A stretch of DNA of 36,906 nt from IMG/VR virus record IMGVR_UViG_638341087_000007; one strand, given 5' to 3'. Below the pieces are notes generated by a model, which was not told the DNA's origin, did not search any database, and saw only the letters and a list, made by a program, of their open reading frames with translations. The position numbers and the translations under genes are program-made. Shown in pieces: positions 9,647-36,906 of this stretch (within the stretch, counting starts at the first letter, position 1; every line of letters starts with the position of its first letter). Source of the DNA: a virus (lineage: Duplodnaviria; Heunggongvirae; Uroviricota; Caudoviricetes).

Positions 9647-9649
9647 TGG

Positions 9650-10561: not shown

Positions 10562-10571
10562 TTATTACTCC

Positions 10572-12440: not shown

Positions 12441-12590
12441 TATCTGTAAGCCTTTTTCATTAGATGAAAATGCGATAGGCTTCCCTTGTTCTCGAGAACG
12501 GAAGAGCCTCGGTTGACTCACAGCTCATACCTGTAAGTTGATGACTCGCCTTGTGTTCGCTGCACAAGGTGAGTCGCTCTTTTCATGTTA
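12395..12590. repeat. direct repeat copy A (dam 5' end, leader and hairpin)
   Basis: About 190 bp, by-eye roughly 70% identical to 13029-13222; hairpin at an equivalent position. Confidence 0.6.
12543..12585 (+). terminator. hairpin plus T-tract (terminator-like RNA element) in repeat A
   Basis: 13-bp stem GACTCGCCTTGTG/CACAAGGTGAGTC (one G-U pair on the plus-strand transcript), 7-nt loop, followed by CTCTTTTC. Confidence 0.45.
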
Positions 12591-12634
12591 TTTGCATATT
12601 TCATGGGCGACAATTAAAGGGAGTTACTAATACC

Positions 12635-13015
12635 ATGGCCCCAAAAAATATTGAGCGGTTTAATGAAATAGTTGGTGAGATATTTGGGAGACTCTACGAA
12701 TCTTTCCCCGTCAAAATTGATATAAAGGCAGTTGATATCGTTAGACAGAATGAACTTACTTTTTTTCTTGATACCGTAGACTGGCTTAAAAACAGTGGCT
12801 ATTTAATCGGGGCGCGTAGTTCTGGGGGGATCCACAACGCAGTGCTAACGGCTAAAGGTCTTGAGGTATTAAACGCTACGCCTGGAAGTCTGGAAAAACC
12901 GTTGGGGGCCAGAATATCTGACTCTATAAAAATTGAAGGGAAAGAAGCGTTGCGATCACTGGTTAGCCAGACTCTAGGAATAGGTCTGCAATATATGTCT
13001 CGTGGTCTTATGTAA
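12635..13015 (+). CDS. small protein X1 (126 aa), predicted winged-helix-like; paralogue of 13479..13883
   Basis: Shares with X2 the pattern G-x-IF-x-RL ... F-x-DT-x-x-WL ... VLT-x-K-x-L-x-x-LNA-x-P; AT-rich codon usage compared with flanking phage genes. Confidence 0.6.
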   Translation: MAPKNIERFNEIVGEIFGRLYESFPVKIDIKAVDIVRQNELTFFLDTVDWLKNSGYLIGARSSGGIHNAVLTAKGLEVLNATPGSLEKPLGARISDSIKIEGKEALRSLVSQTLGIGLQYMSRGLM

Positions 13016-13075
13016 TATCGCAAGGCAGCGTTTGCCACCAATCCATGGAACGATGGGTAATGTCTGCGTTTTCAT
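12974..13075 (-). pseudogene. dam 5' fragment (second, truncated copy)
   Basis: Minus-strand translation MKTQTLPIVPWIGGKRCL... matches Dam N-terminus MKEQSLPIVPWIGGKRRL...; frame ends after 33 codons and overlaps the X1 3' end. Confidence 0.6.
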
Positions 13076-13222
13076 AATCTGTAAACATTTTACAATTATT
13101 AAAAATATGGCAGGCTAGTCTGGTCTCACGAGACTGACTGAACCTCGGTCGGCTCACAGTGCATTCCTGTGGGACGATGGCCAGCCCGGCTTTCGGGTGC
13201 CGGGCTGGTCGTTCTTTCATGA
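13029..13222. repeat. direct repeat copy B (dam' 5' end, leader and hairpin)
   Basis: Alignable with 12395-12590. Confidence 0.6.
13181..13221 (+). terminator. hairpin plus T-tract (terminator-like) in repeat B
   Basis: 10-bp stem CCAGCCCGGC/GCCGGGCTGG, 8-nt loop, followed by TCGTTCTTTC; same relative position as the hairpin in repeat A but different stem sequence. Confidence 0.5.
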
Positions 13223-13264
13223 TGCGGCAGGGATAGTGGGATTTCTGTTAATGCGGTTTAGGGA

Positions 13265-13480
13265 TTATCCGGGGTGATTTTCTGACCTTATCTGGTCCAG
13301 GGCGTAAGTGAGCCCTTCTGCAAAAACAGAAGTATCAAACTGCTTTTGTATTTCCTGAAAATGAACAGTGGCACGACAGATACTCAGTTCTCCGCGATGT
13401 AACCGGATAATATCTTCCAGAACATTGTTCACTGCTTCAGCACGGCGCTGATGTTCTGTTAACGTTAATCGGGGATTCAT
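13265..13480 (-). CDS. hypothetical small protein (71 aa), uncertain
   Basis: Strong RBS (AAGGAG, 6 nt spacing) but its start codon overlaps the X2 start codon divergently by 2 nt. Confidence 0.3.
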   Translation of the reverse strand: MNPRLTLTEHQRRAEAVNNVLEDIIRLHRGELSICRATVHFQEIQKQFDTSVFAEGLTYALDQIRSENHPG

Positions 13481-13883
13481 GATGCACTCCTTAAATGATG
13501 ATTTTTATGTACTCACCGGCAAAATATTCTGCCGATTACTGAACACGCATCCGGTACCTCAGGTTTTGATTTATTCTGGTTTTTTCGATATCCCGGACCA
13601 GGTTGATCACGACCAGAAAAAGTGCCGGTATTTTATTGATACGCTGATATGGCTTCGGGATAACAGCTATATTCGTTACTCTCAGTTGCTGGCTGTGGGA
13701 GCGGCTGATGTCGTCCTCACGGAAAAAACGCTCTGTCTGCTCAATGCCATGCCGACCTTTCTGCAGCCCCGGCCCGTGCCATTTAAAGAGTCGCTTCTGG
13801 ATGCAGTAAAAACCGGTGAAAATGCAGTCATCGCTGAATGCGTATCCCGGATTATGCGTTACGTGTTTAATGAACGTAAGTGA
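13479..13883 (+). CDS. small protein X2 (134 aa), paralogue of X1
   Basis: Same conserved pattern as X1; GGGGA RBS; 3' end overlaps the convergent NTPase gene by 25 nt. Confidence 0.6.
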   Translation: MMHSLNDDFYVLTGKIFCRLLNTHPVPQVLIYSGFFDIPDQVDHDQKKCRYFIDTLIWLRDNSYIRYSQLLAVGAADVVLTEKTLCLLNAMPTFLQPRPVPFKESLLDAVKTGENAVIAECVSRIMRYVFNERK

Positions 13884-14602
13884 GGTTTATCCGTTGTCTG
13901 CATAATCCCGATAGCCAGTGCGAGGGGAAGCAATTCCGGGGAAACTTTTTCAAACAGCGATTCCCATTCTCCTCTCGCCATCACTCTGTCCAGCCCGCCC
14001 TCCAGCTGCATTTCAGCAATCTTCCTGATTTCCCGGAACAACGCCGCTTTGATCTCTTCATGCTCAGCTTTATTTTCCGGTGTCAGAATGTATTCGTCGA
14101 AGAACCGGGGAGGCTGGTTAACGGGGATTGTGTTCACCGGGATGTGTTCCTGCTTCCCGTACTTCGGGGCCGAAAAACATTCTGTTGGCTGACCAGCGAG
14201 TTTACGTAACTCCTTCATGAGCAGCTCCTGATCGTAAACTGTCATCAGTGCCGCAATGGTGGCATGCAGTGCATCGGGCAGTATCCAGGGTTGCCGGCCC
14301 GTGGGGCATATAACATCCAGCAGCTCATTCGTCCGACAGATACGCTCCTCGCCGTATGACAACAGGCCCTGTCCCGTGTATTCCTCCAGCCTGATCACTG
14401 TGCCAGCCCGTGGCTTCTGCCAGGTCGTCAGATCATCGCCACTCATACGGCGCTCATTCTCCACGTCAGCAGCATCGACAATGACGCTGTTTCCGAGTTC
14501 CTGTTTCACCATCTCTTCTATCCGCGCCAGTACGTAACTTTTACCGCTGCCCACAGGACCGGACACAGTGACAGTGATGACCGGATTCAGTGTGTGCGTC
14601 AT
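13859..14602 (-). CDS. P-loop NTPase, small-kinase-like N-terminal domain with unknown C-terminal domain
   Basis: Walker A VSGPVGSGKSYV near the N-terminus, candidate Walker B VIVDAAD; no further family recognised. Confidence 0.6.
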   Translation of the reverse strand: MTHTLNPVITVTVSGPVGSGKSYVLARIEEMVKQELGNSVIVDAADVENERRMSGDDLTTWQKPRAGTVIRLEEYTGQGLLSYGEERICRTNELLDVICPTGRQPWILPDALHATIAALMTVYDQELLMKELRKLAGQPTECFSAPKYGKQEHIPVNTIPVNQPPRFFDEYILTPENKAEHEEIKAALFREIRKIAEMQLEGGLDRVMARGEWESLFEKVSPELLPLALAIGIMQTTDKPHLRSLNT

Positions 14603-17087: not shown

Positions 17088-17630
17088 ATGGGACGTCGCA
17101 GCAGCATTGATTCTCTGCCGAAGGAGGTCCGTCGCTGGCTTGAGCGGGCACTGACGGAGAATAATTTCACCGGCTATGCAGAGCTTGAAAGTCTGTTGAA
17201 GGAAAAGGGGTACAGCATCACCCGCTCTTCCCTGCAGCGGTTTGGCTACAAAATGGAGCAGCAACTGGCCCGGGTGCGGGCGGCAACCGAGGCAGCGCGT
17301 CTGCTTGCCCGGGAGGCCGGAGACGATCCTGATGACCGTTCAGCCGGGCTGATAACCCTCGTCCAGACCGAAATGACGGATATCCTGATGCGCCTGCAGG
17401 AGTCGCGGGAAAACGACGATCCCTTCGCCCGGGCAAAACTGCTGGCAACGGCTTCAAAAAATATCGCCACACTGACCCGCGCCTCGGTCAACCTCAAGCG
17501 CTATCAGGCAGAAGTCAGAGAGAGGGTTGAACGTGCTGCCGCTGCCGCCGAGAAAATTGCCCGTAAGGGCGGGCTCTCTGCGGAAGCCGTACAGGCACTG
17601 CGCCGGGAAATTCTGGGGGTGGTATCATGA
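17088..17630 (+). CDS. Mu gp27-like protein (DUF3486), terminase small-subunit candidate
   Basis: N-terminal MGRRSSIDSLPKEVRRWL resembles Mu gp27-like proteins; directly upstream of the large terminase. Confidence 0.6.
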   Translation: MGRRSSIDSLPKEVRRWLERALTENNFTGYAELESLLKEKGYSITRSSLQRFGYKMEQQLARVRAATEAARLLAREAGDDPDDRSAGLITLVQTEMTDILMRLQESRENDDPFARAKLLATASKNIATLTRASVNLKRYQAEVRERVERAAAAAEKIARKGGLSAEAVQALRREILGVVS

Positions 17631-19150
17631 CGGAGCTGCCGCCGCACATTCCTGACACCGCGAGTTATAAGGCCCCTCCCGTTCTGTTGCCCTACCAGCA
17701 GCGCTGGGTGGCAGATGCCTCTCCGCTTAAGGTGATAGAAAAGAGCCGTCGTACCGGTATTACATGGGCTGAGGCATCCGATAACGTACTGACCGCCGCC
17801 TCTTCTGCGCCAGCAGGCGGGATGAATGTGTATTACATCGCTTATAACCAGGACATGACCGTCGAATACATTCAGGCGTGTGCGATGTGGGCACGGGCAT
17901 TCAACTATGCGGCCAGTGAAATTGAAGAAGGATTCTGGGAAGAGGACGACGACGACAAACACATCAGGACTTACACCATCAAATTTCCTGACTCCGGCTT
18001 TCGTATTGTTGCGCTCTCCAGCCGCCCGTCTAACCTGCGTGGCCGTCAGGGTATTATTGTTATCGACGAAGCGGCGTTCCATGAGCAACTGGACGAACTG
18101 CTGAAAGCGGCGCTGGCGATGCTTATCTGGGGGGGAAAGGTACGCGTTATCTCCACCCATGACGGTGACGACAATCCGTTCAATACGCTTATCGGGGATA
18201 TCCGTGCCGGACGTCAGGGAGGCAGCGTACATCGCATCACTTTCCGGGAAGCCGTATCTGAGGGGCTGTTCCGGCGCGTTTGTCTGCGCACCGGGAAGGA
18301 ATGGTCGGAGGCATCCGAGCAGGCCTGGATGGCGTCAGTGTACAAATTCTACGGTGCCGGTGCATCCGAAGAGCTTGACTGTATTCCGGCCAACGGTGGC
18401 GGTGCCTGGCTGTCCCGAGCCCTGATAGAGTCCCGCATGTCCGCTGATACGCCGGTATTGCGTCTGACCTGCAAGGAAGGTTATGAGCTGCTGTCTGATG
18501 AGGTTCGCTTCCGCGAGACGCAGGACTGGCTTGATGAGCATCTGAAACCCTTGCTGGAGGCGCTCCCCGCTGGTGCCCGCTCTTTTCTGGGGCGCGACTT
18601 TGGCCGTAGCGGTGATTTGTCGGTGGACTATCCCCTGCTGCAGGAGAAGAACCTGATACGACGCGTGCCATTCGTACTGGAGTTGCGTAACGTGCCGTTC
18701 AGGCAGCAGGAGCAAATCACCTGGTATCTGATGGATGGCCTGCCCGGTCTGCTGGGTGCTGCGTTTGATGCCCGTGGTAATGGTGCCTATCTGGCTGAAT
18801 ACGCCATGCAGCGCTACGGCTCCAGCCGGGTTCAGCAGGTGATGCCAACCGAAGGCTGGTACCGGGAGCATATGCCTCCGGTCAAAGCTGCACTGGAAGA
18901 CGGTAACCTGGTGGACTTACCAAAGGATGAAGACACACTGGATGACCTGCGGGCCGTTCAGGTGGTGAACGGTGTCCCCCGCGTGCCGGAGCAACGCTCA
19001 AAAGCAAAGGCTGATGGTGGTAAACGCCACGGGGATTCAGCCATCGCACTGGCGCTGGCGTATTTCGCCAGCCGTGAAATTAACAAAGGGCCGGTGAAGG
19101 CAAGCTCACGCCGTCGTCGTCAGGCGGCCCGTATGCTGGAGGGATTCTGA
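17627..19150 (+). CDS. terminase large subunit (Mu gp28-like)
   Basis: 507 aa, position and size; nuclease-type acidic motifs in the C-terminal half. Confidence 0.75.
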   Translation: MTELPPHIPDTASYKAPPVLLPYQQRWVADASPLKVIEKSRRTGITWAEASDNVLTAASSAPAGGMNVYYIAYNQDMTVEYIQACAMWARAFNYAASEIEEGFWEEDDDDKHIRTYTIKFPDSGFRIVALSSRPSNLRGRQGIIVIDEAAFHEQLDELLKAALAMLIWGGKVRVISTHDGDDNPFNTLIGDIRAGRQGGSVHRITFREAVSEGLFRRVCLRTGKEWSEASEQAWMASVYKFYGAGASEELDCIPANGGGAWLSRALIESRMSADTPVLRLTCKEGYELLSDEVRFRETQDWLDEHLKPLLEALPAGARSFLGRDFGRSGDLSVDYPLLQEKNLIRRVPFVLELRNVPFRQQEQITWYLMDGLPGLLGAAFDARGNGAYLAEYAMQRYGSSRVQQVMPTEGWYREHMPPVKAALEDGNLVDLPKDEDTLDDLRAVQVVNGVPRVPEQRSKAKADGGKRHGDSAIALALAYFASREINKGPVKASSRRRRQAARMLEGF

Positions 19151-25000: not shown

Positions 25001-25464
25001 TGAATGTTCTGCCCGTCCTTGATGCGGTGCTGGCCCGGTTGCGCGAGAAGCTGCCTCAGCTGCAGGTTGAGTACTTCCCGGAAAAGCCGTCCGAATACCG
25101 CCTCAATCATTCTGTCGGGGCGTTGCTGCTGAGCTATGCAGGATCGCGTTTCGACAGGCCGGATGATACCGGTGCGGTGATCCAGCCTCAGACTATCCAG
25201 CTCTGCGTCACGGTGGTCTTCCGACAGCTCAACGGTAAAAAAGGGGCGATTAATGTCCTGGATGCTGTCCGCCGCATTCTTGGTGGCTACACCCCGCCCG
25301 GGTGCCGCCGCCGTATCTGGCTGACCCGCGAGGTGTTTATCGGTGAAGTCAGGGGGCTGTGGCAGTACGCCCTCGACTTCGCGACTGAAAGCGTCTTTAT
25401 CGAAGACAGCGATTTACCGTCCGGCCCGCTGTTAACTGAAGTGAACTATGAGGAAAGCGAGTGA
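25000..25464 (+). CDS. Mu gp37-like protein (DUF1834-like)
   Basis: 154 aa, conserved position before the sheath gene. Confidence 0.5.
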   Translation: MNVLPVLDAVLARLREKLPQLQVEYFPEKPSEYRLNHSVGALLLSYAGSRFDRPDDTGAVIQPQTIQLCVTVVFRQLNGKKGAINVLDAVRRILGGYTPPGCRRRIWLTREVFIGEVRGLWQYALDFATESVFIEDSDLPSGPLLTEVNYEESE

Positions 25465-25715
25465 TGAAAGAATACCGCTATTCCGGCCCGGCCAGCGGCG
25501 TCACGCTGTCGGACGGAACCGAAATCCTGCTCTGGCCGGGGAAGACTGTTTCCCTGCCGGAGGAGCATGACTACGTGAAGGTACTGGTGGCGCTGAAGCA
25601 TCTGACGCCGGTATCTGAAGAAATTAAACCCGCCGGCACACCGGCTGTGCAGTCACCAAAGCGCAGGAACGGCGGTGACAGCGAGGTGAAAACGGAGGAC
25701 GCCCATGTCAGCTAA
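25464..25715 (+). CDS. small conserved protein (Mu gp38-like)
   Basis: 84 aa, overlapping start/stop with neighbours. Confidence 0.4.
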   Translation: MKEYRYSGPASGVTLSDGTEILLWPGKTVSLPEEHDYVKVLVALKHLTPVSEEIKPAGTPAVQSPKRRNGGDSEVKTEDAHVS

Positions 25716-27132
25716 CTATCTGCATGGTCCGGAAACCATTGAAGTGGAAAACGGTGCCCGCCCGGTTAAAACGGTGAAATCTGCCGTTATTGGCCTGATT
25801 GGTACCGCACCAATGGGGGATGTCAATACGCTGGTACAGTGCCTGTCTGAGAAAGACGCTGCGGCATTTGGCAGCCAGTTCACCGGCTTTACCATTCCAC
25901 AGGCGCTGGATGCGATTTATGACCATGGTGCAGGCACCGTTCTGGTCATTAACGTACTCGATCCGTCTGTGCATAAAACCGCTGTGGTCAGTGAGAATGT
26001 GTCGTTCGACAAGGCGACAGGCAGAGCCCGGCTGGCTAATCCGGTGGTCGCGCAGCTGGTACTGAAACCGGACAGCGACGGTCAGCCTTATGTTGAAGGT
26101 CAGGACTACTCGCTTGATGCACAGACCGGGGTGATTACTAACCTGGGTAAAAGCATTGCTGCAGATGCAACGGTGAAGGCCAGCTATAACTATGCTGATC
26201 CGACCAAAGTCACCCCGGCTGATATCATCGGTACCGTTAACGCTGCAGGCAACCGTACCGGCATGAAGCTGCTTAACGACAGTTTTAACCTGTTTGGCTA
26301 CTTCGCCAAAATCCTGATTGCTCCGGTATTCTGCACCCAGAACAGCGTCTCGGTTGAGCTTATCGCCATGGCTGAGAAACTGGGAGCAGTAACCTATATT
26401 GATGCGCCGGTTGGTACCACTTTTGCGCAGGCTCTGGCGGGACGAGGCCCGGAAGGCACCATTAACTTTAATACCAGCTCTGACCGTGTCCGCCTGTGCT
26501 ACCCGCATGTGAAGGTATATGACCCGGTGACGAACACGGAACGTCTGGAGCCACTGAGCCAGCGTGCGGCGGGCCTGCGTGCCAAAGTCGACCTGGACAA
26601 AGGGTACTGGTGGTCATCCTCCAATCAGGAAATTCTGGGGATCACCGGCGTGGAGCGCCAGCTGTCGGCAATGATTGACGATCCGCAGAGCGAGGTGAAC
26701 CTGCTTAACGAACAGGGGATCACCACGGTATTCAGCAGTTACGGCAGCGGCCTTCGTCTGTGGGGTAACCGGACGGCAGCATGGCCAACGGTCACCCATA
26801 TGCGTAACTTTGAGAACGTTCGCCGCACCGGTGATGTGATCAATGAGTCCATTCGTTACTTCAGCCAGCAGTACATCGACATGCCGATTACTCAGGCGCT
26901 GATTGATGCACTGACGGAGTCGGTCAACGCCTACGGTCGCAAAATGACTGGTGATGGCGCGGTACTGGGCTTCCGTTGCTGGTTTGATCCGGCCCGCAAT
27001 CCGGAAACGGAGCTGGCCGCCGGGCACCTGTTGCTGAGCTACAAATATACGCCACCACCGCCGCTGGAGCGACTGACGTTTGAGACTGAGATCACCTCGG
27101 AATACCTGTTAACCCTGAAAGGGGGCAACTGA
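25705..27132 (+). CDS. tail sheath protein (Mu L-like)
   Basis: 475 aa, immediately upstream of the tube gene. Confidence 0.75.
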   Translation: MSANYLHGPETIEVENGARPVKTVKSAVIGLIGTAPMGDVNTLVQCLSEKDAAAFGSQFTGFTIPQALDAIYDHGAGTVLVINVLDPSVHKTAVVSENVSFDKATGRARLANPVVAQLVLKPDSDGQPYVEGQDYSLDAQTGVITNLGKSIAADATVKASYNYADPTKVTPADIIGTVNAAGNRTGMKLLNDSFNLFGYFAKILIAPVFCTQNSVSVELIAMAEKLGAVTYIDAPVGTTFAQALAGRGPEGTINFNTSSDRVRLCYPHVKVYDPVTNTERLEPLSQRAAGLRAKVDLDKGYWWSSSNQEILGITGVERQLSAMIDDPQSEVNLLNEQGITTVFSSYGSGLRLWGNRTAAWPTVTHMRNFENVRRTGDVINESIRYFSQQYIDMPITQALIDALTESVNAYGRKMTGDGAVLGFRCWFDPARNPETELAAGHLLLSYKYTPPPPLERLTFETEITSEYLLTLKGGN

Positions 27133-27653
27133 TGTCAAAGATTGAGATAAACCGAATCACGAATGCCAACATCTATCTGGATGGTACTAACCTGCTGGGA
27201 CGGGCTGAGGAGGTTAAACTCCCCGATGTCTCCATGATTATGCAGGAACACAAGGCACTGGGGATGGTGGGTAAGGTGGAACTCCCGGCTGGTTTTGACA
27301 AACTGGAAGGCGAAATCAAATGGAACAGCTTTTACCGCGATGCGATGCTGTCTGCCGCGAACCCGTACAAGTCGCTGGCGCTGCAGTGTCGCTCCAGCGT
27401 CCAGCGCTACAGCTCGCAGGGGCTGATCGACGAAATCCCGCTGGTCACCTTCCTGACAATTATGTTCAAGAAGAACCCGCTGGGGACGTTTAAACAGCAC
27501 GAGAACGCCGAGTTCTCCAGTAGCTTCACCTGCACGTATATCAGACAGGTACTGGATGGTGAAGAGTTGCTGCAACTGGACTATCTGGCCAACATCTTCC
27601 GCGTCGGTGGCGTTGATCAACTGACTGACTATCGGATCAATATCGGGGGCTGA
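27132..27653 (+). CDS. tail tube protein (Mu M-like)
   Basis: 173 aa, directly after the sheath. Confidence 0.65.
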   Translation: MSKIEINRITNANIYLDGTNLLGRAEEVKLPDVSMIMQEHKALGMVGKVELPAGFDKLEGEIKWNSFYRDAMLSAANPYKSLALQCRSSVQRYSSQGLIDEIPLVTFLTIMFKKNPLGTFKQHENAEFSSSFTCTYIRQVLDGEELLQLDYLANIFRVGGVDQLTDYRINIGG

Positions 27654-27655
27654 CG

Positions 27656-27937
27656 GTGAGTGTTGAACTGACTGACAAAGGAGGGCGATGTGCGTCACTG
27701 GGCATGTCAAATGGTACGTGGTTTACCCTCCTTGATATTCCGGGGGTGGAAACCCTTTTTAATACCCGTAAAACCAATGACCCGATTGACTGCACACGTT
27801 CAAAGGCCCGCAAACTGGCCGATTTGATTGAAGCATGGGAGCCGCCCGACCACTGGTTCTCCGGCATCGGCAAATCTGAGGGAAAGGCGCTTCTCATCGC
27901 TTTCCTGCGTAACTGCAAGGGTTTTCGCACTTGCTGA
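27656..27937 (+). CDS. hypothetical protein (93 aa)
   Basis: GTG start, no clear RBS; followed by a terminator hairpin. Confidence 0.3.
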   Translation: MSVELTDKGGRCASLGMSNGTWFTLLDIPGVETLFNTRKTNDPIDCTRSKARKLADLIEAWEPPDHWFSGIGKSEGKALLIAFLRNCKGFRTC

Positions 27938-27943
27938 CATCAC

Positions 27944-27966
27944 AGGGGCTCCGGCCCCTTCTTCTT
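27944..27966 (+). terminator. rho-independent terminator after the tail tube operon
   Basis: Stem AGGGGC/GCCCCT with loop TCCG followed by TCTTCTT. Confidence 0.45.
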
Positions 27967-27983
27967 AATCTCCTTTAATATCC
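27963..27983 (+). promoter_or_regulatory. candidate late promoter element upstream of the tail chaperone operon
   Basis: TCTTAATCTCCTTTAATATCC, similar to the elements at 14663 and 22047. Confidence 0.35.
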
Positions 27984-28028
27984 GTCACGTCCACCGCCAG
28001 ACATACTGCTCTGAATTTACAAAGGAGT

Positions 28029-28370
28029 ATGATCATGTCACAGACCCAGTCCGATACTTTTACGCTGTCTTATCCTTTCACCACTGCTGCAGGTACCAGA
28101 ATTGAACAGATTGAACTGAAACGCCTGACAGTAAAAGACCTGAAGCAGGTGCGCAAAATCAACAAAGACCCGGCAGACTGGGACGAACCACTGATTGCCC
28201 GTAGCACCGGTATCCTCCCGGAAGACCTCGATAACATGGATCTTGCCGACTATATGGAGCTGCAGAAACGATTTCAGAAAATCACTGGGCTGGGCAAGAG
28301 CGACAAAAACACTGATGCAGGCGCAGGGCCTGCTGGCGAGATGGTTCAGGTTTCAGCCGGGGGAGATTGA
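28029..28370 (+). CDS. tail assembly chaperone
   Basis: 113 aa between tube and tape measure; AAGGAG RBS. Confidence 0.6.
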   Translation: MIMSQTQSDTFTLSYPFTTAAGTRIEQIELKRLTVKDLKQVRKINKDPADWDEPLIARSTGILPEDLDNMDLADYMELQKRFQKITGLGKSDKNTDAGAGPAGEMVQVSAGGD

Positions 28371-28452
28371 TGCCCTCGATACTGACGATCTGGAGATGTG
28401 GCTGGAGCAGGCTGAAGAGCAAATCAAAAGCGAGTTCGGCGACAATCAGTAA
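28195..28452 (+). CDS. tail assembly chaperone frameshift extension (overlapping +1 frame)
   Basis: ORF overlaps the chaperone 3' half in the +1 frame and ends just before the tape measure gene. Confidence 0.45.
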   Translation: MPVAPVSSRKTSITWILPTIWSCRNDFRKSLGWARATKTLMQAQGLLARWFRFQPGEIDALDTDDLEMWLEQAEEQIKSEFGDNQ

Positions 28453-28544
28453 CAACGTATCACTTAACAGCCGCCAGTCGCGGCTGTTCTGCATGGGGTT
28501 CAGACACTTCCCTTCCGTTTTTTTGCTTTCAGAGGATAGCCACC

Positions 28545-31010
28545 GTGGCCAGTGAATTTTCAGTCGGCGTCATTATTGGCGGCATTGTCGGGAGCAGCTT
28601 CCGCTCAGCCGTCAGTGGCACCCGACGCGCCCTTGATTCCCTTGGTGATACCTCCCGCCGTCTGCAGGAACGCCAGAATGCCTTAACCCGGGCAACAGAA
28701 CGTTATGGTCAACTGGGTTCTTCCCGGATGCAGCATCTCAACAGCGAGTTGCTGCGGGTAAGCCGCACCATGGAGCAAATTGAACGTCAGCAGCGCCGTC
28801 TGTCAGCAGTATCAGCCACCGGTGATGCGTTGAAGGCTAACCGCCTGGCGCTCTATGGTCAGGGTGCAGAAACCTATGCTATTGGCAGAACGCTGGGCGC
28901 ACCGGTCATGGCCTCGGTTAAACAATATGCCTCGTTTGAATCACAGTTACGGGATATCAGTGTCACAGGAGACCTGGATGCAAAACAGGAACGTGCAATT
29001 GGCCTGGCTATCAGACAGGCCTCGCTGAAGGTTAACCAACTGCAGGAGTCTCTGTTAGGGGGAGTCGGACAATTAGTTGCTGATGGTATGGCCCCCGAAC
29101 GGGCAGCAACGTTTGCAGAGATGCTTGGAAAGACCGCTACAGCAACCAAAGCCGATATGACCGACCTTGCCAAAATGACTTATGCCTTCAGCGATGCACT
29201 CAGAATCACTGATGCGAAAGAACTTGAACAGGCATTTGGTATTGCGGCAACAGGAGCCAAACTTGGGTCATTTGAGCTGAAGGATATGGCAAAAGCATTA
29301 CCCGGTATGGCTAAAGCCTTCGCTGCCCGTGGCATTTATGGAAAAGATGCGATTACCCAGATTGTTGCCAGTCTGGAGGTCGGTAAAGGTAGTGGCTCTG
29401 CAGAGGAAGCGGTCACCAATATGTCCAACTGGCTGGCAGCAATGGGCCGCGGAGATACCATCCAGAAATATGCTAAAGCCGGGGTGGATTACCAGGGGTC
29501 AATGCAGAATTACGTCGCTCAGGGTTTTTCGCAGTACGAAGCTTCACTGATGATTGCCAACCGTTTTATCGACAGTAAAGGCAAAGCGTTTTTGCAGCAA
29601 TGGAAAGCTGCAGGAGCAAGAGGCGATCAGGAAGGTCAGCAGAAACTCATGGAGTCATTTGGTCTGGCTGAGGTCTTTACCGATATTCAGACTGTCAACC
29701 ATTTACTGTCAATGCGACAGGGCTGGGATAAATACCTTTCCAGTAAGCAGGAAATGAATGCTCCGGCTGCAATGTCTACCCTGGATAAGGATGCTGCAAA
29801 GCAGAATGATACGCTTGAAGGTCGCTGGCGCAGAATGCAGATCGGCTTTAATGATTCTGCTATCAGCATCGGGCAATCCTTGCGTCCGGCTTTGCTCCAG
29901 TTGGGTGAAACATTTATTCCTTTAATGGACAGCGTCGGCAAATGGATAGCGGCAAATCCGCAGCTCGTCAGCAGCACCATAAAGGTTGTGGGCGCATTAC
30001 TCGCTTTCAGGATGGCCACTATCGGTCTCAAGCTTGGGCTGAATCTCCTTATTTCCCCCTTTGTAAGCGTCTGGAAAAATGCTGTTTTACTGCGGACCAA
30101 CTGGCGTCGACTGACTACCGCACTCGGAGAAGGTGGCAAATTACGCTGGCTTGTCACTGGATTCAGCCGGCTGGCCAGCGGAGGACTGAAACTCAGCAAA
30201 GTTCTGGCGGGCAGCCTCGTTCGCGGTTTTATGATTGCTGCACGTGCCCTTCTCTGGATTGGCCGGGCGCTGATGATGAATCCCATCGGTCTCGCTATCA
30301 CCGCCGTCGCGGCAGCAGCTTACCTTATCTACCGCAACTGGGGCGCAGTCAGTAGCTGGTTTAAACAGCGCTGGGCTGACATTCAGGAAGCCTTTAACGG
30401 CGGCATCGCGGGAATTGGTAAACTGCTGGTTAACTGGTCTCCGGCGGGTCTGCTTTATAAAGCCTTTGCGGCTGCGCTGAAATATCTCGGCGTTGATTTG
30501 CCGGCGAAGTTCACCGACTTCGGTGGTCATCTTATCGACGGGCTGATAAATGGCATCAGAAACAAATGGGAGTCACTGAAAACCAGCATAACCGGAATGG
30601 GTGACAGCATCAGTGACTGGTTCAGCGAAAAGCTGGGCATCCATTCACCGAGTCGCGTGTTTATAGGCTTTGGTGACAATATCGCGCAGGGTGCCGCCAT
30701 TGGCCTGCAACGGACCACTCCGCTTGCTGCACTGGCCGGGCAGCGCCTGGCCGCTGAAATGACACCGGATGTTCCCCGTATCCCGTCGCCGGAAATCATG
30801 GCTGCCGGATATTCAGGCCGTGGCGCAACTGCAACCGGCGGTGGAGCGTCTGGCGGTATCCAGGTCAGCTTTAATCCTCAGTTTTTCCTCAATGGTAAGG
30901 AAACCGCAGCGCCTGCCGGGCTGGCTGGTGCCCTGAATATGAGCCTGCATGAGCTGGAAAAAATGCTGGAGCGTCTGCTGGCTCAGAAACAACGTAAGGA
31001 GTACAGCTGA
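28545..31010 (+). CDS. tail tape measure protein
   Basis: 821 aa, alpha-helical, Ala/Gly-rich, hydrophobic segments in the C-terminal third. Confidence 0.8.
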   Translation: MASEFSVGVIIGGIVGSSFRSAVSGTRRALDSLGDTSRRLQERQNALTRATERYGQLGSSRMQHLNSELLRVSRTMEQIERQQRRLSAVSATGDALKANRLALYGQGAETYAIGRTLGAPVMASVKQYASFESQLRDISVTGDLDAKQERAIGLAIRQASLKVNQLQESLLGGVGQLVADGMAPERAATFAEMLGKTATATKADMTDLAKMTYAFSDALRITDAKELEQAFGIAATGAKLGSFELKDMAKALPGMAKAFAARGIYGKDAITQIVASLEVGKGSGSAEEAVTNMSNWLAAMGRGDTIQKYAKAGVDYQGSMQNYVAQGFSQYEASLMIANRFIDSKGKAFLQQWKAAGARGDQEGQQKLMESFGLAEVFTDIQTVNHLLSMRQGWDKYLSSKQEMNAPAAMSTLDKDAAKQNDTLEGRWRRMQIGFNDSAISIGQSLRPALLQLGETFIPLMDSVGKWIAANPQLVSSTIKVVGALLAFRMATIGLKLGLNLLISPFVSVWKNAVLLRTNWRRLTTALGEGGKLRWLVTGFSRLASGGLKLSKVLAGSLVRGFMIAARALLWIGRALMMNPIGLAITAVAAAAYLIYRNWGAVSSWFKQRWADIQEAFNGGIAGIGKLLVNWSPAGLLYKAFAAALKYLGVDLPAKFTDFGGHLIDGLINGIRNKWESLKTSITGMGDSISDWFSEKLGIHSPSRVFIGFGDNIAQGAAIGLQRTTPLAALAGQRLAAEMTPDVPRIPSPEIMAAGYSGRGATATGGGASGGIQVSFNPQFFLNGKETAAPAGLAGALNMSLHELEKMLERLLAQKQRKEYS

Positions 31011-31894
31011 TGTTTGCCGTACTGGGTGATATTGAGTTTGAACTGATTACCTACTGGGACGGCTTCGAGGCCACGTTTGGCGTCGATTATGCGGAGCATG
31101 CCCGCATCGAGGGTAAACCCGGCCTGCAGTTTGTCGGCGACAGGCTGGACGAAATCCAGATAAGCCTGGTCTTCCATCAGCATTATTGTGTGCCCGACGT
31201 GGAGCTGGCGAGAGTGCGAACAGCCATGAAGGCCCATCAGGCACTGGCGCTGGTCTTCGGCAACGGTGACTATCGCGGCTGGTTCGTGATTACCGATGTG
31301 ACCGCAACCAGCGAGCAGACAGACAGCACCGGTAACGTGCTGGCTGTCAGTGCCACCGTGTCTCTCCGGGAATACACCGGTGACCCGAAAAATCCTCTGC
31401 AACCGCCGGCAATACGCAGGCAGGTTCCCGGTGCCGGAGCTGTATCGGGTGCTGTTCCATCGCCTTCCGGGGTGGCGCAGTTCGTCCGTAACGGCGTCAA
31501 CTATGCGAAACAGGCGCAGTCTGTACTCCAGACCACTATCAGTGCCGTTCGGGTGGCGCAGAAAATGAAGGGTAACCCCGTTGTCGCGCTGACCCGTGTG
31601 CCGGGACTGATGAGCGGACTGGGTAATATATCCGGCGCTCTGGGGAAAAGTATTCCGGCGTTTAATGCACTCTCTGAATCCATGCCCGATGCCATCAGTC
31701 TGGCCAGAACAGCCAGTGAGGCAGCCACGTATGTACAGCAGGCGCAGTCGGCGCTGAGTGGTGTGGACAAAAGAAATATTGCAGGTGCTCTGGATACCGT
31801 TTCCGGGCAGCTTAACGCCGCCGGCACAGCATTCAACCGCATGTCTCCGGGATTAAGTGCAATGGCCGCCAGAATACTGACGAGGAGTGTGTGA
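31010..31894 (+). CDS. DNA circularization protein N-like / P2 gpU-like tail protein
   Basis: N-terminal domain pattern resembles the Mu N and P2 gpU family. Confidence 0.55.
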   Translation: MFAVLGDIEFELITYWDGFEATFGVDYAEHARIEGKPGLQFVGDRLDEIQISLVFHQHYCVPDVELARVRTAMKAHQALALVFGNGDYRGWFVITDVTATSEQTDSTGNVLAVSATVSLREYTGDPKNPLQPPAIRRQVPGAGAVSGAVPSPSGVAQFVRNGVNYAKQAQSVLQTTISAVRVAQKMKGNPVVALTRVPGLMSGLGNISGALGKSIPAFNALSESMPDAISLARTASEAATYVQQAQSALSGVDKRNIAGALDTVSGQLNAAGTAFNRMSPGLSAMAARILTRSV

Positions 31895-32106
31895 TGTTTC
31901 TTGAACATATTACCCGTGACGGAGAGCGCTGGGATTCGCTGGCATGGCAGTACTACGGTGACCCGCTGGGCTATCCCCGGATTATTGCAGCCAATCCGCA
32001 CGTGGCCATTACGCCGGTGCTGCCCTCCGGGTTGTTGTTACTGATCCCGGTTATTGAGGCTGAAGATGCCCGTACAGAAGAGGATATTGCCCCATGGCTG
32101 AGATAA
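31894..32106 (+). CDS. tail protein X-like (LysM-like)
   Basis: About 70 aa with RWDSLAWQYYGDP motif typical of P2 gpX-like proteins. Confidence 0.6.
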   Translation: MFLEHITRDGERWDSLAWQYYGDPLGYPRIIAANPHVAITPVLPSGLLLLIPVIEAEDARTEEDIAPWLR

Positions 32107-33248
32107 ACAGTACTGCGCAAGCCACATCAGCGTTAACCGGCGTCAGCGATGTGCTGACGCCGGTATTCACTCTGTGGTATCTGCAGAAAAACATCACCTC
32201 TGATATCGCGCCTTATGTCACCCGTGTGGTCTGGAGCGATAACATCAAAAATGAGTCCGATACCATTGAGGTGGAGCTGGACGACACCGATGGCCGCTGG
32301 CTGGATAAGTGGTATCCGGGCAAGGGTGACACGCTGACGCTGAAAATGGGTTATCAGGGCGAGAAACTGCTGTCCTGCGGTACATTCTCAATAGACGAGA
32401 TCGAAGTGAGTTCGCCCGCGTCCGTTGTCGCTATCCGTGGGGTGGCCACCTCGGTTAACAGTGCTCTGCGGACTAAATCCAGCCGTGGTTTTGAGAACAC
32501 CACGCTGGCAGCTGTTGCGGGGCGGATTGCCAGAAAGCACCGGCTGAAACTGGTGGGCAGCATTGAGTCCATCAGAATCGACCGGGTGACCCAGTATGCT
32601 GAAACCGACGTGGGTTTTCTGCGCCGGCTGGCCAGCGAGTATGGTTATGCAGTGAAAGTGGTCAGTGACCAGTTGATTTTTTCTCATCTGGCCACACTGC
32701 GCAGTCAGGAGCCGGTCAGGCAGTTAAAACCGCAGGATGTGGCCTGCTTTTCCCTGCGTGACACCATCAACCGGGTCTATAAATCTGCAAAGGTAAAACA
32801 CCAGAAAAGCAGCAGTAAAAAACTGATCGTCTACGAAGCTGATGGTGGTACCCGTGAAAGCGACAAAAAGCTCAAAGGCGGTAAGGTTACCAGCGCTGAC
32901 TCACTTAAAGTTAACAGCCGCGTCAGCGACCCGGACAGTGCCCGGATTAAAGCGGATTCAGCACTGGCCAGACATAACGAATACCAGCAGAACGGCTCCC
33001 TGACGCTGACGGGAACGCCTCAACTGACAGCAGGCAACAAAATTGAACTGGTGGGCTTTGGACAGTTATCCGGTCCATGGCTGATAATCACTGCCCGCCA
33101 TGCGTTTGAGCGTAACAGCGGCTACACCACAGAGCTGGAAGTGGCACGGGGGCCAGTCACAAGAGGGAAAAAACAAAAAACTCAGAAACTCACGGTTTAT
33201 CACCCGGATGGCAGTACATCGACGGTGATTAAGGAGAAGAAAAAATGA
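32094..33248 (+). CDS. baseplate hub / late control D-like protein (Mu P-like)
   Basis: 384 aa, position after the X-like gene. Confidence 0.65.
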   Translation: MAEINSTAQATSALTGVSDVLTPVFTLWYLQKNITSDIAPYVTRVVWSDNIKNESDTIEVELDDTDGRWLDKWYPGKGDTLTLKMGYQGEKLLSCGTFSIDEIEVSSPASVVAIRGVATSVNSALRTKSSRGFENTTLAAVAGRIARKHRLKLVGSIESIRIDRVTQYAETDVGFLRRLASEYGYAVKVVSDQLIFSHLATLRSQEPVRQLKPQDVACFSLRDTINRVYKSAKVKHQKSSSKKLIVYEADGGTRESDKKLKGGKVTSADSLKVNSRVSDPDSARIKADSALARHNEYQQNGSLTLTGTPQLTAGNKIELVGFGQLSGPWLIITARHAFERNSGYTTELEVARGPVTRGKKQKTQKLTVYHPDGSTSTVIKEKKK

Positions 33249-33772
33249 CTGGTGTCACCCGTCAGATCGGTACGGTCAGTGCCGTTGATGCCGACAGGGT
33301 TCAGGCCCGCGTTCGTCTGCCTGAATGCGATAATCTGCGCACAAACTGGCTTAACGTGCTACAGCGCAATACCCAGGATAACAAGGATTACTGGCTCCCT
33401 GACGTGGGGGAGCAGGTTGAGGTGCTGCTCGATGCCAACGGCGAGGATGGTGTTATTCTGGGCGCGGTGTACTCAGACGTCGATAAACCGCCGTTCAGTG
33501 ATAAAAACGTCCGGGGTACGAAATACGCTGATGGCGCGGAGTTCAGTTATAACCGCGCGACCCATACGCTGACGGTCAGAGGAGGTATTGAGCGTATCGT
33601 GGTGGAGGTTGCCGCTGATATCTCTCTCAAAGGGAAAAACCTCGACCTCACGGGAGTTACCACGATCAACGGCCCCGCGACACTCAATGGTGATCTGGAA
33701 ATCAACGGAAGCGCCCATGCAACGGGTAACATATTTGCTGATGGTCAGAACTCTAATCACCATTCCCATTGA
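33245..33772 (+). CDS. baseplate spike protein (P2 gpV / Mu gp45-like)
   Basis: 175 aa, OB-fold-like N-terminus and beta-rich C-terminus. Confidence 0.65.
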   Translation: MTGVTRQIGTVSAVDADRVQARVRLPECDNLRTNWLNVLQRNTQDNKDYWLPDVGEQVEVLLDANGEDGVILGAVYSDVDKPPFSDKNVRGTKYADGAEFSYNRATHTLTVRGGIERIVVEVAADISLKGKNLDLTGVTTINGPATLNGDLEINGSAHATGNIFADGQNSNHHSH

Positions 33773-33828
33773 ACCTTCTTAAACGCCTTTAATATCGGCG
33801 CTTACTTCCCGGGGGCAATACTGCCTCC

Positions 33829-34176
33829 ATGAAAACGACCTCAGTATTCTGGCAACCAGCTCTGCAGGCTCCCGGCGAAATCGTCCGGGGGCTGGATGAT
33901 ATCCGGCAGTCCATCCAGATCATCCTGCGGACTCCCCGCGGCAGCGACCCGCATCGCCCGGAGTTCGGCAGCAATCTGCACCTTTATATCGACTGGCCTG
34001 TCGACCGGGCCATTCCGCATGTGGTTCGCGAATCCGTCGATGCCATCAGGCGCTGGGAACCCCGCTGCCAGCTTATGTCGGTTAAACCCGCCGTCGACGG
34101 CGAACATCTTACGCTCCGGGTGAGCTGGAAAGGCTCAGACGGACAACCCCGTACTCAGGAACTGCTATGGCGCTGA
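33829..34176 (+). CDS. baseplate wedge protein (T4 gp25 / P2 gpW-like)
   Basis: 115 aa, conserved position. Confidence 0.65.
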   Translation: MKTTSVFWQPALQAPGEIVRGLDDIRQSIQIILRTPRGSDPHRPEFGSNLHLYIDWPVDRAIPHVVRESVDAIRRWEPRCQLMSVKPAVDGEHLTLRVSWKGSDGQPRTQELLWR

Positions 34177-35270
34177 CAGAACCCGATTTTATTGAACGCG
34201 ATGCCGATAAAATCACGGCAGAAATGATTGCGAAGTATGAAGAGGATACCGGAAAAACGCTGTACCCGGCACAGGCTGAACGTCTGCTGATTGACCTGTG
34301 GGCCTATCGCGAAATGCTGGTCAGGGTGGCAGTACAGGAGGCGGCGAAGCAGAATCTGGTCGCTTTTTCCCGTGAGCCGATGATTGATTACCTCGGTGAA
34401 CTGGTCGGTGTATACCGCCTTGCTGCGCAGCCTGCCACCACCACACTTCAGTTCTCTGTGGATGAGGCACTGGCCATTGATGTGCTGATCCCGGCAGGCA
34501 CCCGCGTCAGCGCTTCCGACAGTATTATTTTTGCCACCGATACAGATGTGGTGCTGAAGGCCGGATTGCTGCTGGTCAATGTCACGGCCACCTGTACCGA
34601 GCCGGGTACCGCTGGCAACGGCTGGCAACCGGCGCAGGTCAGTCAGTTACTCGATGAGATTGATAACATTGACCTGCTGGTGACCAATCTGACGGCCAGC
34701 TCTGGCGGTTCAGAGCAGGAAGACGATGACCGGCTCCGGGAGCGTATCAGGCTGGCCCCGGAGTCATTCACCAATGCCGGAAGCCGTGGTGCATACCGTT
34801 TTCATGCTATGGGGGCGCATCCCGGCATTGTCGACGTTGCTGTTCTTTCTCCCGCTCCCGGCACTGTCGAGCTGTATCCGCTGCTCAGCACTGGTCTGCC
34901 GGACAGCAGTATCCTCACTCTGGTAGAGAGTTTCTGTTCTGACGAAAAAGTCAGACCACTCACTGATACCGTGCGGGCTAAAACACCTGTTCAGGTGGAT
35001 TACACCATTGAAGCCAGGATTACGATCTATCGTGATCAGGATGCAAGGTTGGTAAAGGACAACGCTAACAGCGCCATACAGAACTGGGTGGCATCCCGTA
35101 CCGCCACGCTGGGGCGCGATATTGTTCCCAGCCAGATTATCAGCGTGTTGTCCGTTTCCGGGGTGTACCAGGTCGAACTGGTGACACCGGCACTGAGGGT
35201 GGTGGCAGAAAACGAATGGGCAAACTGTACGGCGATCACTCTTAACATGACCGGGGTGTCCGATGGCTGA
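34167..35270 (+). CDS. baseplate J-like protein (Mu gp47-like)
   Basis: 367 aa, overlapping start. Confidence 0.7.
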   Translation: MALTEPDFIERDADKITAEMIAKYEEDTGKTLYPAQAERLLIDLWAYREMLVRVAVQEAAKQNLVAFSREPMIDYLGELVGVYRLAAQPATTTLQFSVDEALAIDVLIPAGTRVSASDSIIFATDTDVVLKAGLLLVNVTATCTEPGTAGNGWQPAQVSQLLDEIDNIDLLVTNLTASSGGSEQEDDDRLRERIRLAPESFTNAGSRGAYRFHAMGAHPGIVDVAVLSPAPGTVELYPLLSTGLPDSSILTLVESFCSDEKVRPLTDTVRAKTPVQVDYTIEARITIYRDQDARLVKDNANSAIQNWVASRTATLGRDIVPSQIISVLSVSGVYQVELVTPALRVVAENEWANCTAITLNMTGVSDG

Positions 35271-35841
35271 GGTGCTACAACTCCCGCCACCGCTTGAGGG
35301 TGATATCAGTCTCAGAACGCTGGGAAGACTGGCCGGACGGCTGGATAACATCGACCTGAGCGTACTGATGGTCGGTCTCGTCGATATTGTCGACAGTTCC
35401 GCGCTGCCATGGCTTGGCGAGCAGTTCTCGCTGTTCGGCGATGGCTGGGAACTGGCGGAATCGGACGATGTACGCCGCATGCTTATCAAATCCGCTATCG
35501 AGCTACACCGCTATAAAGGAACACCGTGGTCAATCCGGGAAATTATCCGCCGTTTTGGCTTCGGCGAAGTGGATCTGATTGAAGGTACGGGGCAGATTGG
35601 CTATGACGGCAGACACACGTACAACGGGCTTTTCGTCCATGGTGATGCACAAGCCTGGGCAGTCTATCGCGTCATCCTTCAACAACCCATCACTAACGAT
35701 CAGGCGGCGCTGTTACGTCAGACGCTTGCTGCCTTTGCTCCGGCTCGCTGTCATCTGGCAAGTCTGGAATATCAGTCTGTCGCCATTCGATACAACAGTA
35801 CTACCCGTTATGACGGTAGTTACAACCACGGGAGCAGTTAA
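35263..35841 (+). CDS. tail protein (P2 gpI / Mu gp48-like)
   Basis: 192 aa, immediately upstream of the tail fibre gene. Confidence 0.6.
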   Translation: MAEVLQLPPPLEGDISLRTLGRLAGRLDNIDLSVLMVGLVDIVDSSALPWLGEQFSLFGDGWELAESDDVRRMLIKSAIELHRYKGTPWSIREIIRRFGFGEVDLIEGTGQIGYDGRHTYNGLFVHGDAQAWAVYRVILQQPITNDQAALLRQTLAAFAPARCHLASLEYQSVAIRYNSTTRYDGSYNHGSS

Positions 35842-35843
35842 TT

Positions 35844-36804
35844 ATGGCAAATCTACCCGAAACCCCGCAGTGGGAAAGCGGCATATACCAGATTGAGGTC
35901 TCTGACCCCGTTCTGGGCGGACCTGACGGAATTTCTAACCGCCAGGCTAAACAACTGGCCAGCCGAACGTCATACCTCAAACAGAAGGTCGAAAAAAGCG
36001 GAACAGACCTGGCTGCACATATCGCGGCAGTTGACCCGCATACCCAGTACGCGACGAAAGCCAGTCCGACATTCACCGGCACACCAACAGCACCTACACC
36101 TGCAAATGGTGATAACAGCAAAAAGCTGGCGACGACGGAGTTTGTGGCCAAAGCACTTGCGGCACTTGCAGGCAGCGCCCCTGAGACACTGGATACGCTT
36201 AAAGAGCTGGCTGACGCTCTCGGTAATGATCCAAACTTTGCGACTACGGTACTGAACAAGCTGGCGGAAAAGCTGGCTAAAGACCAGAACGGCGCAGATA
36301 TTCCTGAGCCTGCGCTGTTTGTCAAAAACCTTGGTTTGGGGGAAGGCTCNGCGCTGCCCGTTGGTGTGCCTGTTCCGTGGCCCTCAGCCACACCNCCAAC
36401 NGGNTGGCTGAAATGTAACGGTGCAGCATTTTCTTCTGAAATGTANCCCAAACTGGCAAAAGCTTACCCCACCAATAAATTACCGGATTTACGGGGTGAA
36501 TTTATTCGTGGCTGGGATGANGGGCGGGGAATTGATTAATAGACGCAACCTACTGTCTGCACAGTCTGACACTATTCAGAATATAGTTGGCACTTTTGGA
36601 CGAACTCAGCTTTTTAAAGATGCTTTAAATTCAGGGCCATTTAGTCAAACTGACTCTATATTATCAGTAGGCTTGCAACCAACTGAGAATATTGAAGGAT
36701 ATGGCGCCTCTGTATGGACATTCGACGCCTCTCGCTCAGTTCGCACAGCATCTGAAACACGTCCTCGTAACATTGCGTTTAATTACATCGTAAGGGCGGC
36801 ATAG
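35844..36804 (+). CDS. tail fibre protein, reading frame broken near 36521-36540 (ambiguous bases)
   Basis: Conserved fibre N-terminus (ASPTFTGTPTAPTPANGDNSKKLATTEFV), crossover motif PVPWPSAT..GWLKCNGA, then C-terminal fibre motifs (LLSAQSDTIQNIVGTF, ETRPRNIAFNYIVRAA) in the next frame; six N bases in 36350-36521. Confidence 0.7.
36322..36420 (+). repeat. tail-fibre crossover-region repeat, copy 1
   Basis: About 100 bp, near-identical to 36806-36906; encodes LGEGxALPVGVPVPWPSAT..GWLKCNGA. Confidence 0.75.
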
Positions 36805-36805
36805 A

Positions 36806-36906
36806 AACGTTGGTTTGGGGGAAGGCTCAGCGCTGCCCGTTGGTGTGCCCGTTCCGTGGCCCTCAGCCACACCGCCAGCAGGGTGGCTGAAATGTAACGG
36901 CGCAGC
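36806..36906 (+). repeat. tail-fibre crossover-region repeat, copy 2 (start of a start-less alternative C-terminal cassette)
   Basis: Begins 2 nt after the fibre stop codon, same orientation, 479-bp period, no start codon in its frame; runs to the window end. Confidence 0.7.

Follow-up and report, generated by a model that had tools for sequence, protein, structure and literature searches.

In 1990-1992, Sandmeier, Iida, Arber and co-workers reportedly described Min, a multiple DNA-inversion system on p15B, a plasmid related to P1; it is said to comprise several 26-bp crossover sites at which one constant 5' part of a fibre gene is joined alternately to different 3' cassettes, with more than two sites, overlapping invertible segments and a serine invertase of the Din family adjoining the region. 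The 1991 work of Sandmeier et al. is said to have arrived at 240 isomers and six alternative open reading frames (ORFs) for this system. In the transposable phage Mu, the G/Gin system follows the fibre gene, close to the right end of the phage, and combines a constant part (Sc) with variable parts across sites of 12-2-12 layout with AAACC..GGTTT (Mu gix reads TTATCCAAAACC-TC-GGTTTACAGGAA); its two sites allow for two alternatives, and each alternative comes with a chaperone of its own (S/U and S'/U'), and the P1 C/Cin and e14 P/Pin systems are two-site relatives as well. The R64 shufflon also uses multiple inversions to put alternative C-termini on a constant N-terminal part, in this case that of PilV, and also favours inversion over deletion. 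For P2-like prophages, long-read work on Escherichia coli EC958 revealed high-frequency inversion in culture at a site of the Phi2 prophage that reads ...TAAACGTT GGTTTGGGGGAA (PMC4134206), and a tail-fibre "shufflon" with 3 repeats and 4 coexisting variants was described in a P2-like prophage of EPEC E2348/69 (PMC4272514).

Here, we analyzed a stretch of viral DNA of 36,906 nucleotides, referred to as the window, which very probably finishes within a multiple DNA-inversion switch of the Min type, located at the right end of a prophage that is Mu-like. By every feature tested here, the locus belongs to the same kind as the Min system of p15B, with which it shares the traits named above, from the several 26-bp sites and the alternately joined cassettes to the adjoining Din-family invertase and the overlapping invertible segments. 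It is unlike p15B in its carrier, which is a Mu-like prophage with a P2-type tail and a 319-aa fibre rather than a P1-type plasmid prophage with a fibre of roughly 750 aa, and in the number of sites, which ranges from 2 to 6 between otherwise near-identical prophages. The layout of the sites is that of Mu, as is the place of the locus, behind the fibre gene and towards the right end of a transposable phage; in contrast to Mu, the locus has up to six sites, cassettes of about 145-190 aa, only one chaperone gene, and TT instead of TC as the core dinucleotide. It differs from P1 C/Cin and e14 P/Pin in its number of sites, and from the R64 shufflon in that Rci is a tyrosine recombinase acting at 19-bp sfx sites on a pilus adhesin, whereas the recombinase here is a serine invertase. 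The similarity to EC958 Phi2 is close: its 3' site, GAGAGATAAACGTT GGTTTGGGGGAA, lies in a 227-bp repeat and is essentially the same site and head as found here, its cassettes likewise carry Collar domains, and inversion was seen in its reads (PMC4134206). Both the EC958 and the EPEC system, however, are built from 2 or 3 sites in P2-like prophages, whereas 5-6 sites are reached here in a Mu-like prophage, with one-headed cassettes stacked head-to-tail.

At its largest scale, the window consists of two parts:

1-1740, no strand assigned: left flank, made up of an integrase gene and part of an IS66-family element that is multicopy (ISEc8), outside the switch.
1741-36906, plus strand: transposable prophage of the Mu-like type, with a contractile tail module of P2 type; it carries the switch and is truncated where the window ends.

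The second part is collinear, at 96-99% identity, with a prophage of E. coli 12089 (locus L006, 5166-39515). The annotation of that prophage includes DDE transposase, MuB-like ATPase, Gam, GemA, Mor, a DUF935 portal, a Mu-F-like head protein and a P2-type tail (sheath, tube, tape measure and gpU/X/D/V/W/J/I). As genes for transposase, MuB-like ATPase, Gam, GemA, Mor, portal and Mu-F-like head protein are present in this collinear prophage, we classified the element in the window as a Mu-like transposable prophage. The window begins in one repeat family and finishes in another, which would be the typical look of a short-read contig. The public assembly collection indexes the gpI protein, whose gene adjoins that of the fibre, in about 10,900 blocks.

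The switch itself occupies the last kilobase of the window, where the following features were delineated:

35844-36330, plus strand: constant 5' part of the tail-fibre gene, with its ATG at 35844 and 162 codons to the crossover core.
36319-36344, plus strand: crossover site 1, of 12-2-12 layout, TTGTCAAAAACC-TT-GGTTTGGGGGAA, with its left half fixed in the constant part.
36331-36804, plus strand: cassette 1, the currently expressed C-terminal receptor-binding cassette, with a Collar domain and a small variable domain.
36333-36535, plus strand: conserved cassette head, present in all cassettes at about 90-95% identity, containing all six Ns.
36536, plus strand: extra T that breaks the fibre frame, at the column where the cassettes diverge.
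36798-36823, plus strand: crossover site 2, in direct orientation, GGCATAGAAACG-TT-GGTTTGGGGGAA, with a left half that carries the last codons of cassette 1 and TAG.
36810-36906, plus strand: head of the silent cassette 2, without a start codon and cut by the window end.

The initial annotation of this region, made from the sequence alone, had described a segment of roughly 100 bp that recurs in direct orientation 479 bp downstream. A repeat search of the window indeed returned a single direct repeat family, with copies of 102 nt at 36326-36427 and 36805-36906 and a start-to-start spacing of 479. In a pairwise alignment, the copies are 92% identical when Ns are counted as mismatches, the 8 mismatches being 4 Ns and 4 real differences, and the window contains the 21-mer AAACSTTGGTTTGGGGGAAGG two times, for an expectation of 0 from 100 shuffles. 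The downstream copy was said to start 2 nt after the fibre stop codon; its actual start is 1 nt after the TAG at 36802-36804. This copy reaches the last base of the window, where its full extent is hidden; in relatives, the common cassette head is about 205-210 nt long. The reading of the gene as a tail-fibre gene with a constant 5' part, and of the repeat as its conserved crossover region, was borne out: the constant part is 97-99% identical in all related loci, irrespective of the cassette behind it. Equally sound was the view of the downstream copy as a start-less alternative C-terminal cassette that can be fused in frame, as both copies have an identical codon phase across the TT core, and the C of the codon CTT comes from the constant part. 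The fibre ORF at 35844-36539 stops early and resumes in a different frame as 36421-36804, where cassette 1 terminates in ...RPRNIAFNYIVRAA-TAG, with the stop codon inside the left half of site 2 (36798-36809). For cassette 1, the Pfam Collar domain (PF07484) was found in the intact homolog. Two other candidates in this region were set aside: an antisense ORF of 216 aa (35801-36451), which is a mechanical ORF opposite the fibre gene and was not taken as real, and the inverted repeats I1/I2 (14 nt, 36075-36088 versus 36360-36373 and 36839-36852), which are short, intragenic and at chance level, and have no role.

To see beyond the window end, we relied on related loci, ten more of which were obtained by a look-up with the exact gpI protein. 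Among these ten, L013, in a 5.1-Mb contig with an E. coli-type flank, is 99.93% identical to positions 25263-36906 of the window over 11.6 kb; apart from 1 SNP, the two differ only by the window's six Ns and its single extra T. With this identity and so few differences, no better view of the window's own locus is available than L013. Its five sites are arranged as +++--, and it encodes an intact 319-aa fibre, two further "+" cassettes, a Caudo_TAP chaperone, two "-" cassettes and an invertase gene; cassette 2, of which the window holds the head, goes on in L013 as an ORF of 143 aa (11552-11983). L001, the complete genome of strain 12089, has one more "+" cassette behind the fibre gene; next come a gene for tail-fibre assembly on the "-" strand and four "-" cassettes, and then a 190-aa protein with Resolvase and HTH_7 domains. 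From these near-identical loci, we infer that the invertase, the inverted sites and the remaining cassettes of the window's locus are located outside the window. A Collar domain is present in all four "-" cassettes of L001, and in all cassettes examined. Silent cassettes are routinely annotated as separate "phage tail protein" genes.

Across 13 related loci, all 55 crossover sites have the core TT and a right half that is either GGTTTGGGGGAA or a one-base variant of it. They consist of two imperfect, inverted 12-bp half-sites around the 2-bp core, as in the Gin/Cin/Hin type, and agree well with Mu gix and with a consensus table for such sites (PMC4134206). The number of sites per locus ranges from 2 to 6 (six in L001 and L016, five in L013, two in L014, and 3-5 in others); homologous fibres of other genera mostly come with two sites only. 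In every one of the 13 loci, all "+" sites precede all "-" sites, giving the order (+)^m(-)^n. At least one "-" site is found downstream in every related locus, and the outermost one adjoins the invertase gene; the window itself has two direct sites only, owing to its truncation. This order follows from the way in which the cassettes are built. Each cassette opens with a right half-site and a conserved head of ~205 nt, and most cassettes finish in a conserved tail, with the stop codon built into the left half-site. Because that left half-site belongs to the next site, one-headed cassettes can be stacked head-to-tail without a spacer. One segment is two-headed, consisting of two opposed cassettes and the chaperone gene, and the two left halves at the outer ends stay in place, the first within the constant part of the fibre and the second next to the invertase gene. 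As a head must meet a tail at every junction, any one-headed cassette located left of the two-headed segment has to be direct, and any located right of it inverted. In other words, the direct repeat in the window is a structural necessity of such a switch. The ORFs of the cassettes begin only at the in-frame TTG of GGT TTG GGG.

We simulated this grammar, allowing inversions only between oppositely oriented sites, respecting the pairing of heads and tails, and starting from the arrangement of L001 with its six sites. From there, 240 configurations were reachable and all six cassettes (ORFs) could be expressed, which equals the numbers reportedly published for p15B; a directly repeated cassette needed two inversions for its expression.

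The initial annotation had also suggested looking for an invertase gene downstream, and such a gene is present in the near-identical loci. In L013 and L001, beyond the point at which the window ends, it encodes a protein of 190 aa with a Resolvase domain (E = 1.7e-51) and HTH_7, which matches the Mu Gin structures 4m6f/3uj3 with E = 4.5e-91 and is 72.7% identical to Mu Gin. NCBIfam returned no specific family for either the invertase or the fibre, all matches being below cut-off. A Fis-like motif is common to the invertase gene and Mu gin at the same position (nt 94-108, centre about 101), while a second Fis motif, about 48 bp away, was not clearly conserved when the 5' end of the invertase gene was aligned to Mu gin and scanned for motifs. 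With Gin and Hin, the Fis/enhancer invertasome makes inversion of reverse-oriented sites the favoured outcome, ahead of deletion between sites in the same orientation. The invertase is presumably active in the window's strain, and may depend on Fis and an enhancer.

With these elements, we propose the following mechanism. The cassettes are promoter-less and start-less, and would be expressed through the constant 5' part, which ends in a left half-site. Inversions between oppositely oriented sites, driven by the Gin-like serine invertase encoded after the last site, would permute the segments in such a way that any cassette could come to lie in frame behind the constant part, and the change of cassette would be expected to change the host range. 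Cassette 2 would reach the position of expression by two successive inversions with the "-" sites downstream.

The related loci contain isomers that differ in just this manner. Cassette 1, which is expressed in L001 and L013, occupies position 2 of L002 as a silent cassette; L001 and L002 have the two-headed segment in opposite orientations; the cassette expressed in L003 is one of the "-" cassettes in L001; and L013 and L015 are a single 2.2-kb inversion apart. The most telling evidence is given by five loci that share one insertion site, with flanks that are 99.99-100% identical over 11 kb and 5.7 kb. Because Mu-like phages insert almost anywhere, the shared insertion site points to a single ancestral lysogen. 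The loci of this clonal set differ from one another by inversions bounded by the sites and by loss of cassettes, with 5, 5, 4, 3 and 2 sites. Their flanks are only about 80% identical to E. coli, which indicates that the host is another enterobacterium, probably Salmonella. As judged from these sequence comparisons, inversion does take place in this locus family. Isomers within a single strain were also considered for E. coli strain 8178, of which three complete genomes seemed to differ; all three isolates have one identical configuration, and the apparent difference came from the joining of match pieces.

The two direct copies could also be read as a switch in their own right, as was done in the initial annotation: recombination between them, whether by RecA or by the invertase, would drop cassette 1 and join the constant part to cassette 2. 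The predicted product stands, as the fusion is in frame across the TT core, and about 205 nt at 90-95% identity are sufficient for homologous recombination; cassettes have evidently been lost as well, given that loci with 5, 5, 4, 3 and 2 sites coexist in one clonal background. As a route for switching, however, recombination between the direct copies is not upheld and seems very improbable to us. The enzyme is of the Gin type, which acts on inverted sites, and DNA inversion systems favour inverting the segment between reverse-oriented sites rather than deleting the one between sites of the same orientation (PMC11850598). Moreover, deletion is irreversible, and accounts neither for the inversion isomers in the same clone nor for the retention of cassettes in both orientations under the strict (+)^m(-)^n order, while a path of two inversions to cassette 2 exists. 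The cassette losses in the clonal set show that deletion does occur with time, although as decay rather than switching. We therefore retain inversion between oppositely oriented sites as the mode of switching.

A different concern is whether the second cassette exists in the first place, since the region contains Ns and an indel, is located at the very end of the sequence, and may have been falsely duplicated from a contig of an alternative allele or from misjoined reads, leaving only one true cassette; that alternative-allele contigs can make artefactual duplications is a warning given in the EC958 paper (PMC4134206). This we consider scarcely credible. The junction formed by the stop codon, site 2 and the head of cassette 2 is 100% identical over 153 nt in L013, an independent 5.1-Mb contig, and it recurs in the complete genomes L001, L002 and L015, as well as in many others with different cassettes. 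Head-to-tail junctions of this type occur 1-4 times in most related loci, and are absent only from L014, which has no more than two sites. The window has exactly six Ns, at 36350, 36395, 36401, 36404, 36446 and 36521, in accordance with the statement of the initial annotation that all of them fall in or just after copy 1, and they lie within 172 nt of the conserved head. We aligned the head of the window's cassette to the five cassette heads of L013, giving 208 columns. Ns are found in 5 of the 7 columns where cassette 1 differs from all 4 others, in 1 of the 2 columns where it differs from 3 of them, and in 0 of the remaining 199 columns; calculated from these counts, the chance that 6 of 208 columns would all be among the 9 that differ from at least 3 of 4 paralogs is about 8e-10. 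Two columns, 36330 and 36461, have no N, yet all other cassettes differ from cassette 1 there. Position 36330 lies in the fixed left half-site and never moves with a cassette, in keeping with the absence of an N; 36461 is an exception to the pattern. The earlier suggestion that the Ns reflect heterogeneity of a rearranging, multi-copy region is thus well supported, with Ns appearing only where cassette 1 differs from at least three of the four other L013 cassettes. The reading frame had been reported to break next to the N at 36521. The frame is indeed broken in this sequence, but the cause is the extra T at 36536, 15 nt downstream of that N, where the window reads GATTAATAG and L013, L001 and L002 read GATAATAG. 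This is the column of divergence, at which cassette 1 reads GATAAT and other cassettes GATTCA or GATGCA.

The Ns and the frameshift might instead be real, marking a pseudogenised fibre in a decaying prophage, or be random low-quality calls of a locally poor run, with no relation to the cassette family. Prophage fibres are often pseudogenes, and among the related loci the fibre ORF of L002 is shortened and L009 has an IS in its expressed cassette. Even so, we regard either possibility as decidedly unlikely, considering that the six Ns of a 36.9-kb sequence are all at columns that differ from at least 3 of 4 paralogs, and that the extra T is located exactly at the divergence column of the cassettes and is absent from the 99.93% identical relative. 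Most likely, assembly of a multi-copy region left its footprints here, in the form of the six Ns, the insertion of 1 nt and the point at which the sequence ends. Reads of other cassettes would have been merged over the conserved head, whether through a mixture of isomers in the culture or through recruitment of paralogous reads, giving rise to ambiguous calls and a spurious insertion, and the contig would have broken at the repeat; the frameshift is then probably an error of the consensus and not biology. Indeed, inversion in EC958 gave rise to spurious contigs and to clusters of substitutions and indels relative to the 454 draft (PMC4134206). Draft assemblies of other species are fragmented likewise, with contigs of 1.0-1.7 kb that hold a single cassette and one contig that breaks off at residue 164 of the fibre. 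The combination of Ns, a 1-nt indel and a contig end in the conserved cassette head is a signature by which such a switch can be recognized in draft genomes, rather than a sign of pseudogenisation.

Similar cassette heads and invertases are found beyond Mu-like prophages. Matches to the cassette head, at 91-95% identity, were obtained in 164 plasmids, with several of them in each record; the plasmids are mostly non-mobilizable and about 93-116 kb in size (sizes from the 12 records listed). A P1-like phage-plasmid with a very long array of cassettes has, next to that array, an invertase that is 96% identical to the one described here. One P1-like plasmid invertase was found to be 98.5% identical to Min (PMC6906374). 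A further reading, which we think unlikely, is that head-to-tail cassettes form an open exchange platform between Mu-like prophages, P2-like prophages and P1-like phage-plasmids, in which units are gained and lost, possibly by recombination between direct sites or between molecules. The features behind this reading are the conserved head of ~205 nt, the conserved tail of ~50 nt and the stop codon placed in the next half-site. Compatible with it are the variation in cassette number from 2 to 6 in near-identical prophages, with at least 15 cassettes annotated on one plasmid, the deletion variants in one clone, and the presence of 96% identical invertases in unrelated phage backbones. If this were true, the number of cassettes would be an evolving, integron-like trait, beyond the shuffling of a fixed set.

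The mechanism itself has been known since about 1990, and nothing in it is surprising to a specialist. The switch is a textbook case of bet-hedging, in which a phage varies its host range through site-specific inversion, and the copy in the window is the multi-cassette, Min-type form of it, carried by a Mu-like prophage that is very common in E. coli and its relatives.

The left end of the window lies outside the Mu-like prophage, which starts at approximately position 1741, and is occupied by sequence found in thousands of E. coli records:

Window 1-1740: partial transposase gene of ISEc8 (IS66 family) and, after it, a gene for a tyrosine integrase

Because the left end falls in this ISEc8/integrase stretch and the right end in the cassette repeat, the arrangement suggests that the window is an entire contig from a short-read assembly, with a break at a repeat at either end. 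The same assembly behavior is seen in draft genomes of other species, where lone cassettes make up separate tiny contigs of 1.0-1.7 kb in their entirety (L028, L048, and L080), and where one contig stops precisely in the crossover region (L024, 8001-8492). Among the positions at which the expressed cassette differs from the other cassettes of L013, the locus nearly identical to the right part of the window, position 36461 (A in cassette 1 versus G in all 4 others) is cleanly called rather than N, and is the sole exception to the pattern of ambiguous bases left without an explanation.

Within the prophage, 3 stretches match the prophage of E. coli 12089 weakly or not at all (window 11173-11531, 12534-13020, and 17500-19087), and the remainder is 96-99% identical to it. 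The early, lysis, and terminase regions have undergone mosaic replacement in these stretches.

In both the E. coli 12089 locus (L001) and L013, a tail-fiber assembly gene goes with only 1 cassette out of five or six:

L001 8454-9071: tail-fiber assembly (Caudo_TAP) gene
L013 12477-13094: tail-fiber assembly (Caudo_TAP) gene

The remaining cassettes appear either to need no dedicated chaperone or to share the single Caudo_TAP gene, which in the latter case would apparently serve other cassettes while wrongly oriented for co-transcription.

Five loci from a host other than E. coli, probably Salmonella, share one common insertion site with flanks that are 99.99-100% identical, and carry 5, 5, 4, 3, and 2 crossover sites (L007, L010, L011, L012, and L014; about 11000-14300 in each). 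A single clone therefore shows both inversion isomers and irreversible loss of cassettes. Features were also noted at two further loci:

L009 11390-12598: five-site locus, typical except that an IS (DDE_Tnp_1 transposase) interrupts its expressed cassette
L098 6030-14229: at least 15 annotated Collar cassettes adjoining an invertase gene, on a 97-kb phage-plasmid (NZ_CP135665.1)

Since the upstream head and tail genes of L009 are also partly replaced, this locus looks like a decaying copy. Several of the L098 cassettes share identical protein accessions, and the array is either a real expansion or an assembly artifact of the kind against which the authors of the EC958 study caution (PMC4134206).

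In Erwinia, Pantoea, and Limnobaculum (L018, L022, and L023, around 8483-10600), the homologous fiber has just two sites, in +- orientation, whose left halves are TTGTCAAAAACC and TTTCCAAAAACC. The form with multiple cassettes seems to be an elaboration, found mainly in Escherichia and close relatives.
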